64,000 nt of DNA from Alphaproteobacteria bacterium (GTDB lineage Bacteria; Pseudomonadota; Alphaproteobacteria; SP197). Within the stretch, counting starts at the first letter, position 1, and the number at the start of each line of letters is the position of its first letter. The notes under the pieces are model-generated. The model worked only from the letters and a program-made list of their open reading frames with translations. It had not been told where the DNA came from and did no database searches. The stretch spans positions 3,136,001 to 3,200,000 of the forward strand of contig OZ245842.1 in the NCBI GenBank assembly GCA_965228895.1, written 5' to 3'. The position numbers and the translations under genes are program-made. This document shows, one piece after another, positions 56,375-61,808 of the stretch.

Positions 56375-57913
56375 ATGGAAGATCGCTACGCCAAGAAATG
56401 GCGCGCGCTGGTCGGCATCAGCCTGCTTTCGTTTATCGTTTTCATGGATTACGGCATCGTCAACACGATTCTGCCGGGCATCCAGGCCGACCTCCTGGCG
56501 AGCGTCAGGCAATTGCAATGGGTCATGAACGTCTTCTTTATGACGCTTGCCATGTTCATGGTGACGATGGGGCGTCTGGGCGACATCTATGGCCGCCGGC
56601 GCGTGCTCTATATCGGCGTTGTCGTCTTCGGCGTCGCCTCGGCGGTGTGCGGCGCGTCGCCTGACCCCGCCATTCTGATCGCCGCGCGTGCGGTGCAGGG
56701 CACGGCGGCCGCAATCGGGCTGACCTGTGCGGCATCGCTGGTCACCCATGCCTTTCCGGAGGACGAGAAAGGCCGCGCGCTCGGTTTCTTCATGAGCATC
56801 ACCGCCGTCGGCATGGCGATCGGCCCGGTGATCGGCGGTTTCTTCCTGTCGTTTCTGTCGTGGCGCTGGGCGTTTTACGTCAACATTCCCGTCATCATCG
56901 TCGGCTTCATGATCTGCCGTGGCGCGGTGCCGGAAACGCCGCGCCTGCTGAGCGAAAAGGTCGACTGGCTGGGCCTGTTGTTCCTGGTGCCGGGCATCGG
57001 CGTCATGGTGCTGGCGATCATGCAGGGCAATAGCTGGGGCTGGGGCTCCGACGTCATGATCGCGCTCTATATCGTGACCGCCCTCTGCCTGGTCGCGTTT
57101 ATCGTTGTCGAGAAGCGCGTGGCCTCGCCCATCGTAGACCTTAAACTTTTTCGCCACCCAATGTTCCAAAGCGCGGTCTTCGCCGGCTTCGGCCTGGGCG
57201 GCTTTATCGGCATCGGCACGTTTCTGCCGGCGCTTTTCCTGATCAACATCCAGGGAATGCCGGCCTATGTCGCCGGCATGATGCTGCTGCCGATCACCGT
57301 GCTTGTCATGATCATCCCGCCGGCGATCGGCAAACTGGTCGACGCCAGGGGCCCGGCCGGTTTCATGATCCTGGGTCAGGCGATCCTGGTGATCGCCGCA
57401 GTTGTCCAGGTCTTCTTCGTCCCGGCGTCGCCGGCCTGGTTCGTGCTGCTGGGGCTTGCGCTGTTCGGCCTGGGCTGGGGTTTCCAGCAGGCCTCGACGG
57501 CGGTCGCTGCTACCAGCGCACTGCCGCCCGAAGCGGCCGGGCTTGCCATCGGCTCGCTGTGGACGTTCTGGAACATCGCCTCGTCGATCACGCTCGCGGT
57601 CGGTGGCATGATCCTGCGCGTCGTCGATCAGTCGCGCCTGGACGCGTCGCTGGCGGCGAACAACATCTCGCTCAGCAACCAGCAGCAGCATGTCATCCGC
57701 AGCCTTTTGTCGGACCCCAGTCGCGCAGAACAGACGCTGGGCGAACTGCCGGCCAAACTGTCGACGGAAATCACGCCCCTGTTCCACGACAGTTTCACAG
57801 AAGGCTACAACGGCGCCATGCTGTTCATGGCGATCTGGTGCGCGGTATGTCTGATCGGCACGATCCTGACCGCCATGCGCGGGCGCAAGGCCACTGCAGC
57901 AACGCCAGACTGA
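56375..57913 (+). CDS. MFS efflux transporter, DHA2 (EmrB/QacA) family
   Basis: D.GIVN..LP.I, GRLGDIYGRRR, GPVIGG, WRWAFYVNIP; about 14 TM. Confidence 0.9.
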   Translation: MEDRYAKKWRALVGISLLSFIVFMDYGIVNTILPGIQADLLASVRQLQWVMNVFFMTLAMFMVTMGRLGDIYGRRRVLYIGVVVFGVASAVCGASPDPAILIAARAVQGTAAAIGLTCAASLVTHAFPEDEKGRALGFFMSITAVGMAIGPVIGGFFLSFLSWRWAFYVNIPVIIVGFMICRGAVPETPRLLSEKVDWLGLLFLVPGIGVMVLAIMQGNSWGWGSDVMIALYIVTALCLVAFIVVEKRVASPIVDLKLFRHPMFQSAVFAGFGLGGFIGIGTFLPALFLINIQGMPAYVAGMMLLPITVLVMIIPPAIGKLVDARGPAGFMILGQAILVIAAVVQVFFVPASPAWFVLLGLALFGLGWGFQQASTAVAATSALPPEAAGLAIGSLWTFWNIASSITLAVGGMILRVVDQSRLDASLAANNISLSNQQQHVIRSLLSDPSRAEQTLGELPAKLSTEITPLFHDSFTEGYNGAMLFMAIWCAVCLIGTILTAMRGRKATAATPD

Positions 57914-57998: not shown

Positions 57999-58949
57999 AT
58001 GAGATATGTTGTACGGGCCATCGCGGCCGCTCTCGTCGTTTGGGTGGGCGTCGGTTTCGCGCCGACGACCATGGCGCAGGACCATCCGCCGGCGGTGATC
58101 TTTGAAGGCTTGATGGACAACTTCTTCGGCCAGGACAACGGTCTCGTGGTCTTCGGCACTTATGACATCGCCTTTGCGCCGGAGGGCCAAATCGATGCCA
58201 TCGTCGGCGTCGTCAATTCCGACGGCGAGGTAATGGCGCAGTTCCCGTTTTTCCCGGATTACAAAATTCACGAGGGGGTGTTCGGACGCATCCAAGTTGT
58301 TGGACCGGCCGACGTTCAATTGACCGAACCTGGTATCTACACGATGGTCTTTGTCGTGGACGGCGAACCGATCACACGGTTTCCGTTTCTGCTGGAACAG
58401 ACCGGTGACGGTTCGGATCCTTTCGATCCCGAAAAAACCTACGCCTTCGACGGATACTGGCGCACGCTCGCTCACATCACGACCGGCAGTGTGAACGATC
58501 AACCAATTCCGATATTTTCGATTTGGCTCGGCGGCGTCGATATGCCGACGCCGGATACCTTCCAGGAGTACTTCGCGGCCGAACTCATGCGCGATGGCGT
58601 GCTCATTGCCCATGCCCAAAAGCAAACGAGCTCCTACAGCAATGGTCAATTCAGGCGCCAAGAGGTCATCATCTACCAGCCCCATGAGGAAAATCAGGCG
58701 CACAACGCCATTGCGTTCACCATGGCCGACATGTCTGTTGACGGTTCCTATGAGCTGAACATCAGTCGACAATCCGACGGCGGCCTGTTGCGCAGTTACC
58801 GCTTTACGGTTTCCGGCGGTGAGATCGTACCTTTGCCCCGGACACAACTGGGCTTCGAACCGGCATCCGACTACATCGTGCCGCGAGTCACGCGTAAAGG
58901 ATCGACCATCTACGAGTTCGAAGAAGTAATCTGGATCGCCAGTGAATAG
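57999..58949 (+). CDS. Exported hypothetical protein (beta-rich, acidic)
   Basis: Signal peptide ending TMA; 316-aa ORF, no recognised motif. Confidence 0.75.
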   Translation: MRYVVRAIAAALVVWVGVGFAPTTMAQDHPPAVIFEGLMDNFFGQDNGLVVFGTYDIAFAPEGQIDAIVGVVNSDGEVMAQFPFFPDYKIHEGVFGRIQVVGPADVQLTEPGIYTMVFVVDGEPITRFPFLLEQTGDGSDPFDPEKTYAFDGYWRTLAHITTGSVNDQPIPIFSIWLGGVDMPTPDTFQEYFAAELMRDGVLIAHAQKQTSSYSNGQFRRQEVIIYQPHEENQAHNAIAFTMADMSVDGSYELNISRQSDGGLLRSYRFTVSGGEIVPLPRTQLGFEPASDYIVPRVTRKGSTIYEFEEVIWIASE

Positions 58950-58972
58950 CATGGTGCGATCAAGAGCATGAG

Positions 58973-59001
58973 TTGACCACGCGCCCGCAACGGCATAGAT
59001 A
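58973..59001 (+). promoter_or_regulatory. Sigma70-type promoter for the metG leader
   Basis: TTGACC-17 bp-TAGATA, ending 5 nt before the leader ATG. Confidence 0.55.
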
Positions 59002-59006
59002 GAGGC

Positions 59007-59087
59007 ATGGTCAATCTGACGAACCTTTCGGCCGCGATGATGAAACCGCACATGATGCATGGGGCGGCTTCCTTCGTTATGTCCTGA
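59007..59087 (+). CDS. Met-rich leader peptide MVNLTNLSAAMMKPHMMHGAASFVMS
   Basis: Five internal Met codons including two ATG-ATG pairs, upstream of a terminator and metG. Confidence 0.8.
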   Translation: MVNLTNLSAAMMKPHMMHGAASFVMS

Positions 59088-59116
59088 CGACACCAAGAAT
59101 TACCTGACCACGAAAC

Positions 59117-59148
59117 AAGCCGCCTCCTTCGCGAGGCGGTTTTTCTTT
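59117..59148 (+). terminator. Attenuator terminator upstream of metG
   Basis: aagccgcctc-cttcgc-gaggcggttt followed by ttcttt; 5' arm can alternatively pair with ggggcggctt at 59061-59070. Confidence 0.85.
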
Positions 59149-59188
59149 GTCGAATGCCGTCTTGCGTCTTGGCGCAGCGGAGAACGAC

Positions 59189-60754
59189 ATGAACTACCAT
59201 TCCGACACGACCCGAAGACCGTCCTGGTACATCACGACGGCGATCCCTTACGTCAATGCCGCGCCCCATATCGGCTTTGCGCTGGAGCTGGTGCAGGCCG
59301 ACTGCCTGGCGCGCTTTCATCAGGCCGCCGGCTATGACGTGCGCTTCCAGACAGGTAGCGACGAAAACAGCCTGAAGAATGTTGTCGCCGCCGAGAAGGC
59401 CGGCGTCACGGCACGCCAGCTTGTCGCCGAGAACGCGCAGCTCTTCGTGCGCCTGGGCAACGCGCTGAACACACGCGCCGACGGTTTCATCCGCACCAGC
59501 GCCGATGCGCGCCATCGCCTTGGCGTCGAAAAGCTGTGGCGCGCCGCTGACGCGCGCGGCGACATCTACAAAAAGGCCTATAGCGGCCTCTATTGCGTGG
59601 GCTGCGAACAATTCTATCGGCCCGACGACCTCGAACACGGCAGGTGTCCGGAACACGGCACCGAACCGGAGGAGGTCGAGGAAGAGAACTACTTCTTCCG
59701 ACTATCGCGCTACCGCCATGCGCTGCTTGAACGCATCACCTCTGGCGAGCTTTCGATCGAACCGGCGGGCCGCAGGAACGAAGTGCTGCGATGGCTCGAG
59801 GAAGGGCTGGATGACTTTTCGATCTCGCGGTCAAGCGAACGTGCCCATGGCTGGGGCTTGGCCGTGCCGGGCGATCCCGATCAGGTCATCTACGTCTGGT
59901 TCGATGCGCTGGGCAACTATGTCACCGCGCTCGATTACGATATCGAAGGCGGCCTTTATCAACGTTACTGGACCGGCGCCGCACAGCGCAGCCATGTTGT
60001 CGGCAAAGGCATCACTCGGTTTCACGCGATCTATTGGCCGGCCATGCTGCTGTCGGCCGGTCTGCCCTTGCCCGATCGTATTCTGGTGCACGGCTATGTC
60101 ACTGTCGAAGGCGACAAGATCGGCAAGTCGACGGGCAACGCCGTCGACCCGCTTCCGGTCATCGCCGCTTACGGCGCGGACGCGCTGCGCTACTACCTGC
60201 TGCGCCATATCCGAACCGCCGAAGACGGCGACTTCAGCCACGAGCGGCTGGCGCAAACCTATCAAACCGAGCTCGCCGGGCAATACGGCAACCTCGCCAA
60301 CCGCGTGTTGAGTTTGATCGAACGCTATGCGGATGGCGTTGTGCCCGCACGCGCCGAGAACGCCGAACCGACTGCGCTCGCCAAAGCAGTGGCGGACCTG
60401 CCGAACGCCGTTGCGGCGCATGTCGACCGGTTCTCGCTGCACGAAGCCGTGGCCGCGATCTGGGACGTCATCGGCGAGGCCAACCGCCATGTCGCCGCGA
60501 CCGAACCGTGGTCGCTGGCCAAACAGGTCGCGGCCCTCGACGACAGCACGGAGGCAAGCGCGGCGCGGCGGGCTCTCAATACCTGCTTGCACGACCTCGC
60601 CACAGCACTTGATGCCGTGGCACGTGCCTGCTGGCCGTTTCTGCCCGAGACGTCGGAAAAACTGCTGGCGCAGCTCGGCCTGACATCGGCCGTTGACCGT
60701 CGACCTCTCACGGGGCGGCGTGTGCGCTCAGGGTCGGTGTTGTTTCCGCGTTGA
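59189..60754 (+). CDS. metG: Methionyl-tRNA synthetase, short atypical form
   Basis: YITTAIPYVN..PHIGF, TGSDE, YCVGCE...CPEH knuckle, YVWFDAL.NY, GK.ITRFH, KIGKS.GN, GNL.NR. Confidence 0.93.
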   Translation: MNYHSDTTRRPSWYITTAIPYVNAAPHIGFALELVQADCLARFHQAAGYDVRFQTGSDENSLKNVVAAEKAGVTARQLVAENAQLFVRLGNALNTRADGFIRTSADARHRLGVEKLWRAADARGDIYKKAYSGLYCVGCEQFYRPDDLEHGRCPEHGTEPEEVEEENYFFRLSRYRHALLERITSGELSIEPAGRRNEVLRWLEEGLDDFSISRSSERAHGWGLAVPGDPDQVIYVWFDALGNYVTALDYDIEGGLYQRYWTGAAQRSHVVGKGITRFHAIYWPAMLLSAGLPLPDRILVHGYVTVEGDKIGKSTGNAVDPLPVIAAYGADALRYYLLRHIRTAEDGDFSHERLAQTYQTELAGQYGNLANRVLSLIERYADGVVPARAENAEPTALAKAVADLPNAVAAHVDRFSLHEAVAAIWDVIGEANRHVAATEPWSLAKQVAALDDSTEASAARRALNTCLHDLATALDAVARACWPFLPETSEKLLAQLGLTSAVDRRPLTGRRVRSGSVLFPR

Positions 60755-60769
60755 TCCGAAAACCGGAAC

Positions 60770-61561
60770 TTAAGGACTAGCCGCCATCCATTCGCTCGCC
60801 AGGCGTTGGGCTTCGGCCATCTGGTCGGAGGTCATTTCTGTGAGCACGATGTCGCGGTTGTGGGCGGCAACAGTGTCGCCCTGGGCTGCGGCGAGACCGA
60901 ACCACAGGAAGGCGCGGGCGAGATTGCGCTCCATACCGGCGCCGTCATAGTACATGACCGCCAGGCGGTGCTGGGCACCGGCATGACCTTGGTCGGCGGC
61001 GCGGCGAAACCACGTCGCGGCGATCGTGTCGTCCTGCGTCACACCGCGGCCCATGTAATGCATGTTGCCCAGATTGAACTGTGCCTTGACGTTACCCTGC
61101 CATGCGGCTTCCGAGAACCAGGTGACGGCGGCCGCGTAGTCGAGCGGCACACCCTCGCCCTTGACATACATGGTGGCGAAGTCGAATTGCGCGACGTGGA
61201 AACCCTGCTCGGCCGCACGGCCAATCCACTTCGCGGCTTCGCCGTGGTCCTGCGGCACGCCGATGCCGGCATAGTACATGACGCCGATATTGTACTGCGA
61301 CATGAAGTGGCCGCCTTCGGCCGCGCGGGCGAACCACAGTGCGGCGCTCTCGTTGTCCTGGGGCACGCCGAGGCCGTCGAAATAGAGCGCGCCGACATTG
61401 TACTGGGCTTGCGTCAGGCCTTGCTCTGCGAGCGGCATCCATGCCGCCATCGCAGCCTCGTAGTCACCGCTTTCGTATGCGCTGGTGCCGTCCTGGAGCG
61501 TGGCTTGCGCCGGCGCCGCCAGCAGCACGGTCACGACACACAACAAGGCCAGATATCGCAT
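60770..61561 (-). CDS. Exported Sel1-like repeat protein
   Basis: Five repeats of AQ.N.G.MY..G.GV.QD...A..WF.RAA.QG. Confidence 0.92.
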   Translation of the reverse strand: MRYLALLCVVTVLLAAPAQATLQDGTSAYESGDYEAAMAAWMPLAEQGLTQAQYNVGALYFDGLGVPQDNESAALWFARAAEGGHFMSQYNIGVMYYAGIGVPQDHGEAAKWIGRAAEQGFHVAQFDFATMYVKGEGVPLDYAAAVTWFSEAAWQGNVKAQFNLGNMHYMGRGVTQDDTIAATWFRRAADQGHAGAQHRLAVMYYDGAGMERNLARAFLWFGLAAAQGDTVAAHNRDIVLTEMTSDQMAEAQRLASEWMAASP

Positions 61562-61808
61562 GCCTGCCTCCGCCATGACGGCAAGCCTACGCCCGGCCAT
61601 CAAAAGCGCCGGTAACCGCCGTCACTGATCTGACATCAGCCTACGCGAAACGCGCCTTCTGGCTCAGACAATGAAATGTGACAGGGCCGCCGAGAACCCT
61701 TGTGAAACTGCCAAAAACCCGATGTCTGGCTGTCGCGGATGTGGTGCCTGAACGTCTTATTCTTGCAATGTATCTGTCATGTGGAAAACGCGTGGCACGA
61801 CTGACGGC

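Follow-up and report, generated by a model that had tools for sequence, protein, structure and literature searches.

Positions 58973 to 60754 of the 64,000-nucleotide (nt) stretch of alphaproteobacterial DNA analysed here (the window; contig OZ245842.1) hold, on the plus strand, a short methionine-rich open reading frame (ORF), a set of alternative RNA pairings that includes an intrinsic terminator, and a gene for a methionyl-tRNA synthetase (MetRS) which is the second of its kind in the genome. We propose that the region upstream of the gene is a ribosome-mediated leader-peptide attenuator that senses charged Met-tRNA and controls this auxiliary MetRS, a reading to which we assign a probability of about 0.75. 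It is the best-supported reading of the sequence. Lineages that are independent of one another and differ in sequence share the Met codons, the three alternative pairings and the terminator. What bears on the proposal directly is that the elements are there in the sequence, that they are conserved and covary, that they go with a single MetRS clade, and that folding in silico shows a thermodynamic switch. Coordinates are positions in the window; G000 is the window's own genome, and G001 and G002 are the two other genomes of its genus. The elements are as follows.

58973..58978, + strand: -35-like hexamer TTGACC of the leader promoter, read from the sequence
58996..59001, + strand: -10-like hexamer TAGATA, ending 5 nt before the leader ATG
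59007..59087, + strand: leader ORF of 26 codons, with Met at codons 1, 11, 12, 16, 17 and 25
59029..59036, + strand: region 1, the 5' strand of the protector and partner of region 2 (RNAduplex)
59037..59042, + strand: candidate sensing codons, the tandem Met codons 11-12 (conservation and simulated stall)
59052..59057, + strand: second tandem Met pair, codons 16-17; the Met of codon 16 is kept in G001, G002 and locus L152
59060..59077, + strand: region 2, the 5' strand of the antiterminator, with a 7-nt core at 59061-59067 (fold, RNAduplex and the 12-leader comparison)
59110..59126, + strand: region 3, the 3' strand of the antiterminator and also the 5' arm of the terminator, with its core at 59120-59126 (fold, RNAduplex and covariation)
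59117..59151, + strand: intrinsic terminator, a 10-pair stem at 59117-59142 with a 6-nt loop and a T-rich tail (terminator scan)
59179..59182, + strand: Shine-Dalgarno-like GGAG of the MetRS gene, 6 nt before its ATG at 59189
59189..60754, + strand: auxiliary methionine--tRNA ligase, 521 amino acids (aa), MetRS1-like, without the C-terminal appended domain

A sequence-only reading of this DNA had described a Met-rich leader with five internal ATGs and three competing pairings, and all of these elements were recovered. The sequence and the ORF list both place the in-frame ATGs at 59037, 59040, 59052, 59055 and 59079 (leader nt 31, 34, 46, 49 and 73), giving five internal Met among 25 codons ahead of the stop codon at 59085-87. 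The protector emerges from RNAduplex as leader nt 23-30 paired with nt 54-65; at -12.2 kcal/mol it is the weakest of the three helices. The antiterminator, 59061-77 with 59110-26, is present in the unconstrained minimum-energy fold of 59003-59155, where this long helix consumes the 5' arm of the terminator. Its core has a duplex energy of -17.9 kcal/mol, which none of 500 shuffles equals (z = -4.0). The terminator scan recovers the stem at 59117-59142 and its T run downstream of the leader; the stem is G+C-rich, and the hairpin is worth -16.1 kcal/mol. The MetRS start is about 40 nt beyond the terminator.

The leader ORF has its own promoter-like sequence. Scored as TTGNNN, 17 nt, TANNNN, 5-7 nt and ATG, a pattern with a background of 0.0018 per position in the window, it precedes 11 of the 12 alphaproteobacterial-type leaders compared below, and in seven of ten actinobacterial leaders TANNNT stands 5-8 nt before an ATG or GTG start (background 0.010). 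A consensus promoter scan gave no sites, its rule demanding a T at position 6 of the -10 hexamer, which TAGATA lacks; none was called between the terminator and the MetRS start by the same scan. Because the -10 hexamer ends 5-7 nt before the ATG, transcription is predicted to start on the A of the ATG or immediately beside it, and the mRNA is probably leaderless.

A spare MetRS and the leaders of its clade

The sequence-only reading named the gene metG. The name is right in that the product is a MetRS, scoring 416.8 bits with TIGR00398 against a curated cut-off of 336.35, but it is not the cell's only metG: two MetRS genes of G000 lie above that cut-off, with a mutual identity of 43%. The window ORF has no internal stops and passes the cut-off in the genome search too, and its closest solved structures are bacterial MetRS1 (type-1) enzymes. 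The housekeeping gene is at about C1:2270310-2271749 on the minus strand, downstream of a holB-like gene; no Met-rich short ORF (sORF) was found upstream of it. All 40 sampled relatives carry the housekeeping type. The window's type occurs among those 40 only in the two other genomes of the genus (87-88% identity), and in an even sample of the class it occurs in two of 401 genomes, the window's own included. The nearest relatives outside the genus are in a few alphaproteobacterial metagenome-assembled genomes (MAGs) and a Rhizobium isolate (56-60%), followed by Chloroflexi and Actinobacteria.

Two MetRS copies are also found in the alphaproteobacterial carriers G002, G041, G042 and G043. In three sampled actinobacterial genomes (G449, G520 and G576; loci L123-L125) the clade MetRS is likewise a second copy, beside an ordinary MetRS; a tandem-Met leader precedes it at L124 and L125, and there is no call for L123. 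A Ktedonobacterales-like genome and a Frankia genome have this MetRS type alone. In a FastTree phylogeny of 138 MetRS sequences the window protein lies within a clade of support 95, in which the nine alphaproteobacterial auxiliary copies form one subclade (support 99) adjoining Chloroflexi sequences. Rows left out of the tree were duplicates (L031, L111-L115, L121) and split or partial genes (L118, L119, L092, L139); L135 and L146, from unpublished genomes, were excluded from both counts and tree. The actinobacterial sample tally, 115 of 151 genomes with a match, includes six unpublished genomes (G474, G546, G514, G444, G574 and G508). The clade is scattered over Alphaproteobacteria, Chloroflexi and Actinobacteria. 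Judged by this tree, the window MetRS is an auxiliary, apparently horizontally acquired paralog; the pattern is the one that horizontal acquisition would give, and does not fix the direction of transfer.

Do the Met-rich leaders follow this gene? With a fixed criterion, an in-frame tandem ATG in an ORF of at most 60 codons lying no more than 350 nt upstream, 24 of 78 related loci have such a sORF, as against 2 on the reverse complement and 1.8 in shuffles. The further metagenome loci give 18 of 74. Alphaproteobacterial housekeeping metG genes give 0 of 27, and ordinary actinobacterial metG genes (38-45% identity; two loci of unpublished genomes excluded) give 1 of 24. By a wider criterion used for the clade count, a tandem Met or three Met in seven codons, a Met-rich sORF precedes 27 of the 43 rows inside the window's MetRS clade and 5 of the 95 outside it, the rows of the clade and the related loci being kin, so that the counts and the Fisher value overstate independence. 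Despite this kinship the contrast between the clade and other metG genes is clear both within Actinobacteria and within Alphaproteobacteria, and as far as these upstream sequences go, the Met-rich sORFs follow the MetRS clade and not the host. Runs of two or three Met codons in short upstream ORFs, mostly with a terminator after them, are found in Alphaproteobacteria, Ktedonobacterales, Frankia, Amycolatopsis and others.

Such an arrangement is rare by chance and within the genome. Among the three upstream regions of the window's own genus, shuffling leads one to expect 0.08 in-frame tandem ATGs in a short sORF. A scan of the genome (5.5 Mb) for tandem-Met sORFs followed by a terminator returned only five candidates, of which the window's terminator is by far the strongest. 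The other four have weak hairpins, and we find in them no evidence for a Met-leader regulon in this genome.

Most leaders across the phyla have a Pro codon, often then Arg, one to four codons after the Met run, and Met-Met-Pro-Arg is the end of many actinobacterial leaders. The Pro(-Arg) may be a consequence of region 1 being C-rich, or may have a nascent-peptide effect on the stalled ribosome.

The neighbourhood of the gene differs among carriers. In the window a DHA2-family efflux transporter of the major facilitator superfamily (MFS), EmrB-like and below the curated cut-off, is encoded upstream at 56375-57913 (+), and a 316-aa ORF at 57999-58949 (+), with weak, sub-threshold matches to DUF6941 and a CsgH-like chaperone, lies between the pump and the leader. 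That ORF is not at this position in G001 and G002, where the stop codon of the pump directly precedes the leader promoter. The adjacency of pump and MetRS is thus kept in all three genomes of the genus, and is not found in other carriers. Downstream of the MetRS gene, a convergent ORF with repeated Sel1/TPR-like motifs occupies 60770-61603 (-), and the MetRS gene is therefore monocistronic. In the Reyranellaceae MAGs L033 (1-2775) and L034, the leader and the auxiliary MetRS are preceded by the end of a gltX-like gene, by cysS and by a DUF7002 gene. A Cys-rich leader was looked for upstream of cysS in L033 and L034 and not found, the region there being the end of the gltX-like gene.

Conservation, folding and a proposed mechanism

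Twelve alphaproteobacterial-type leaders were compared: the three of the genus, one metagenome locus at 72% identity, two other metagenome loci, four of Reyranellaceae type, that of the Rhizobium isolate, and one from a genome of another family. The ORF is exactly 26 codons long in eight of them, with very different N-terminal halves. Although G001 and G002 carry many substitutions, their ORFs retain the frame and the length of 81 nt, as do those of five loci further removed. The peptide is poorly conserved outside the Met codons and the helix-forming parts. All 12 leaders have Met within codons 11-14, where by hand count it fills 27 of 48 slots, compared with 15 of 247 other non-start codons. 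In all 12, moreover, the core of region 2 begins at leader nt 54-58. A further Met codon, that at 59079-59081 in the window, is the last or second-to-last sense codon in seven of the 12.

The sequence-only reading had proposed folding and covariation across homologous leaders as a check, and in these 12, aligned by reference, the antiterminator covaries. The region 3 core exists as three sequence variants differing at two positions, and region 2 changes in step with it; region 4, the partner of region 3 in the terminator, is invariant, with G-U pairs accommodating the changes in region 3. All 84 cells of the antiterminator core alignment are paired, and two of its seven pairs are changed on both sides (7 cells), in a small sample of twelve related sequences. 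None of 500 shuffles reaches the covariation score of the core, and sliding the partner by 1-3 columns lowers pairing to 35-67%. Covariation of the terminator could not be counted in the same way, differences in loop length giving its 3' arm two registers, and pairing was instead assessed locus by locus. On this alignment it is hard to see, other than in attenuation, a reason for a helix whose one role is to compete with the terminator. The intrinsic terminator is present in all 12 alphaproteobacterial-type loci and in five of six Chloroflexi loci examined, and all 13 of the alphaproteobacterial and Chloroflexi loci that were picked for having a listed terminator have an equivalent one in the corresponding place.

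In L002, L003, L152, L032-L034, L086, L153 and L154 the stretch from the terminator to the MetRS start contains a conserved C-rich element, whose equivalent in the window, 59152-59178, has diverged. The element resembles region 3 and can pair with region 4 or with the MetRS Shine-Dalgarno, which in the Reyranellaceae-type loci is predicted to be mostly paired (0.10-0.14 unpaired). We considered a dual control in which region 4 pairs with the C-rich element and frees the Shine-Dalgarno, and set it aside, since predicted accessibility shows no consistent difference between the terminator and antiterminator forms.

How might the position of a ribosome affect these pairings? In the simulations the RNA taken to be covered by the ribosome was masked, as far as 12 nt beyond the first base of the codon in the A site, and folding was at equilibrium. 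For the window the terminator has a probability of 0.86 in the free RNA and 0.95 with a ribosome at the stop codon, falling to 0.34 with a stall at codon 11 and 0.13 at codon 12. The earlier proposal that stalling at the first Met pair disfavours the terminator is thus borne out in silico. A stall at codon 13 of G001 takes the probability from 0.97 to 0.01, and one at the tandem pair of the Rhizobium locus L035 takes it from 0.94 to 0.08-0.24. Full-length equilibrium agrees with attenuator geometry in the window, G001, G002, L035 and L040. When the transcript ends before region 4, region 3 of the Reyranellaceae-type and Ktedonobacterales loci is paired with a probability of 0.16-0.60 free and 0.60-0.98 with the ribosome halted at the Met run, and this second test agrees with the geometry of an attenuator for the Reyranellaceae-type and Chloroflexi loci. 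Each lineage agrees with one of these two tests of geometry and not with the other; both are equilibrium tests with kinetics outside them, and the real behaviour will depend on kinetics. By these simulations the first Met position, codons 11-14, is a plausible sensor.

Taken together, these features suggest the following course of events, in which leader translation, the start of transcription, termination in vivo and the response to Met-tRNA are inferred. Transcription would begin at or next to the leader ATG at 59007, and the leader ORF would be translated without a 5' untranslated region. When charged Met-tRNA is plentiful, the ribosome would pass the Met codons and reach the stop codon at 59085-87. 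Region 2 would then be covered by the ribosome or taken by region 1, region 3 would pair with region 4, and RNA polymerase would end at about 59145-59151, short of the MetRS gene. When charged Met-tRNA is scarce, the ribosome would halt with codon 11 or 12 in its A site, so that region 1 is covered and region 2 is free. Region 2 would capture region 3 once this is made, no terminator would form, and transcription would read through into the MetRS gene. The added MetRS would raise charging capacity, which would matter if methionine ran short or if the housekeeping MetRS suffered inhibition or damage.

It is tempting to go further. The MetRS and its Met leader may be a mobile cassette, spread among Chloroflexi, Actinobacteria and Alphaproteobacteria, that supplies an inducible backup or resistance synthetase and acts as a comparator of initiator and elongator charging; we regard this larger picture as doubtful. 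The comparator is conceivable in that a leaderless start would need charged initiator tRNA, while codons 11-14 would need charged elongator tRNA-Met, and the device would fire only if elongator charging drops while initiation still works. If this were true, one would expect that state under partial inhibition of the resident MetRS, for example by a natural MetRS inhibitor, and not under total starvation. That the leader reads elongator against initiator charging, as the sequence-only reading also suggested, is speculation.

Weighing the explanations

Several observations weigh against an attenuator that senses Met-tRNA, beside the kinship of the clade rows already mentioned. No Met leader was called for 16 of the 43 clade members. 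The leaders of G001 and G002, the closest relatives, have only three internal Met and no tandem pair. The whole-leader fold is not unusually stable (z = -1.53, with 17 of 200 shuffles at least as stable), and the case therefore does not rest on stability. The antiterminator duplex clearly beats shuffles only in the window, z ranging from -2.5 to +0.7 in the 12 other loci. Not every simulated stall acts as proposed: stalls at codons 16 and 17 give terminator probabilities of 0.89-0.94, and with codon 25 included the range is 0.89-0.95, favouring termination, and at full-length equilibrium the Reyranellaceae-type loci and three of five Chloroflexi loci keep the terminator at every ribosome position. 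In the window's own genus the protector helix is weak, and a transcript ending before region 4 forms the antiterminator with no stall at all (0.91-0.96 free, 0.80-0.91 with a ribosome at the stop codon). The default "off" state of the genus would accordingly rest on the full-length equilibrium and on kinetics outside the simulation. Lastly, a U-tract terminator is listed for none of the 12 actinobacterial loci, nor for L065, L098 and L099; the output step in Actinobacteria may differ, and might involve Rho or translation.

What else might such a leader do? It could be a general attenuator for translation stress, sensing any slowing of ribosomes, as by antibiotics or overall starvation, with the Met codons incidental or otherwise used. 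A short ORF with alternative hairpins and a terminator is the architecture of inducible-resistance leaders, Met codons are few in G001 and G002, and the best argument for this view is the DHA2-family MFS efflux pump adjacent in all three genomes of the genus. A stress sensor would not however account for the concentration of Met at codons 11-14 in 12 of 12 leaders, for the fact that in at least three phyla Met-rich sORFs recur ahead of this MetRS clade in particular, or for the regulated gene being the cognate synthetase, and we consider it unlikely. We rate slightly lower the idea that the leader is an independent small transcript, encoding a micropeptide or acting as a small RNA (sRNA), with the MetRS expressed by constitutive leakage or from its own promoter. 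The terminator is strong, and a related class offers examples of sRNAs that derive from attenuators and of leader peptides with a function, as with rnTrpL/peTrpL of Sinorhizobium. Against this, only about 40 nt, with no promoter-like site called in them, lie between the terminator and the MetRS start; the module is always directly upstream of this MetRS clade, in differing neighbourhoods; little of the peptide is conserved beyond the Met codons and the helix parts; and the covariation of regions 2 and 3 would be purposeless in a plain terminator. For the last reason, and because the module precedes the clade in unrelated neighbourhoods, we also rejected a plain terminator of the upstream gene.

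Control might instead act mainly through Rho-dependent termination, or through access to the MetRS ribosome-binding site, the U-tract hairpin not being decisive. The actinobacterial Met leaders with no listed U-tract terminator, the low predicted accessibility of the Reyranellaceae-type Shine-Dalgarno and the conserved C-rich element between terminator and Shine-Dalgarno are all in keeping with this. The window and all the alphaproteobacterial-type loci nevertheless have a canonical U-tract terminator, and the predicted access to the Shine-Dalgarno shows no consistent difference from one form of the RNA to the other; such control as the main mechanism seems to us very improbable. Least probable of all is an RNA that binds a ligand or tRNA, namely an S-adenosylmethionine (SAM) or Met riboswitch or a T-box, or that is the target of a regulatory protein. 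SAM riboswitches or T-boxes are common regulators of Met genes both in Alphaproteobacteria and in Gram-positive bacteria. The leader, by contrast, is only about 140 nt long, most of it an ORF kept in frame across lineages. A permissive Rfam search of 58700-59400 returned nothing to E = 0.5 except unrelated eukaryotic models, and a gathering-score search of nine related loci gave no matches. The T-box covariance model had no match up to E = 10 in 58700-59400 and none at the gathering score in the nine loci, and the SAM riboswitch models in Rfam (SAM-I, SAM-II, SAM-V and others) matched neither 58700-59400 nor the nine loci. For want of such matches in these sequences, a riboswitch or T-box was rejected. 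An attenuator sensing Met-tRNA through the translating ribosome is the explanation that we prefer.

Relation to known systems

Leader-peptide attenuation is textbook knowledge for Trp, His, Leu, Thr, Phe and Ile/Val, and more recently for Cys and a few others. Methionine has stood apart: the controls ascribed to Met genes are repressors, SAM riboswitches and T-boxes, and its codon doubles as the start codon. The mechanism proposed here is classical; what would be new is that the amino acid is Met, that the leader is spread over several phyla together with a single MetRS clade, and that the gene under it is a spare MetRS, though such a leader may be listed already elsewhere. The finding indicates a Met version of leader-peptide attenuation that accompanies one MetRS clade in at least three phyla, and in Alphaproteobacteria the attenuator would guard a rare spare MetRS. 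As the sORFs are unannotated and the leaders have no Rfam family, they have been missed by genome annotation and by riboswitch and attenuator catalogues. The leader may offer a simple system for studying how cells tell the supply of elongator from that of initiator Met-tRNA, and it hints at a possible inducible backup or resistance role of auxiliary MetRS genes.

The sequence-only reading knew of no characterised Met leader-peptide attenuator. This agrees with our literature search, in which no Met leader upstream of metG or metS came to light, although the supplements of PMC4007540 and PMC4833913 may list such leaders. A Met-containing leaderless leader, metL, has however been proposed before metNIQ in Streptomyces lividans TK24 (PMC8079986). 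The parts of that paper available to us also propose leaderless leader peptides before leuS, trpS, alaS and thrS. These resemble the window's leader in being leaderless short ORFs, enriched in the cognate amino acid, before synthetase genes, and metL precedes a methionine transporter. In the same parts of PMC8079986, metL is described with scattered Met and Cys codons and no clear terminator, and no leader is reported before metG or metS ('metg' and 'methionyl' have 0 occurrences). In Deinococcus deserti fourteen leaderless leader peptides have been proposed for synthetase and biosynthesis genes, cysS for example, in the accessible part of PMC4007540, from transcripts that, as we predict for the window, open with the start codon of a short ORF in which the cognate amino acid is frequent. 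The main text of PMC4007540 has 0 occurrences of metG, and its supplementary list may hold it. Mycobacteria have polycysteine, leaderless sORF attenuators that respond to amino acids, according to the available portion of bioRxiv 10.1101/834739. Like the window's leader these are leaderless sORFs with runs of a single codon, but they sense Cys and control biosynthetic operons. Their mechanism is not known to rest on a canonical terminator.

In its layout the window's leader is like that of E. coli trp, with a 1:2 protector, a 2:3 antiterminator and a 3:4 terminator, and with the regulatory codons at or just upstream of region 1. It differs in having region 2 within the leader ORF, 17-24 nt ahead of the stop codon and not beyond it, in the weak protector of the window's genus, and in that the sensed codon is also the start codon. 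The E. coli pheST attenuator, with its pheM leader, places a synthetase operon under a Phe-rich leader ORF, alternative hairpins and an intrinsic terminator. The window shares this plan of a cognate-codon-rich leader ORF, alternative hairpins and an intrinsic terminator before a synthetase. It would sense Met, however, and not Phe, and the pheST leader has a Shine-Dalgarno and controls the cell's only PheRS.

Backup synthetases under charging control include thrZ and tyrZ of Bacillus subtilis, which are controlled by T-boxes and induced when charging of the cognate tRNA drops. As is proposed for the window, the housekeeping synthetase is backed by a spare that is normally silent, but a T-box senses uncharged tRNA directly in the leader RNA, whereas the window's leader would act through the translating ribosome. 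In a review of duplicated synthetases (PMC9437257), 'MetRS' has 0 occurrences; TyrZ and an indolmycin-resistant TrpRS1 are among the examples listed in the accessible part of that review. The trpRS1 of Streptomyces coelicolor differs from the window's gene in sensing Trp and in having a proven role in resistance, no inhibitor or resistance being known for the window MetRS. According to Vecchione and Sello, trpRS1 encodes an auxiliary TrpRS and is reportedly under ribosome-mediated attenuation. It is the closest functional analogue of the system proposed here, in which a silent, divergent second synthetase would be induced through a leader peptide when charging falls.

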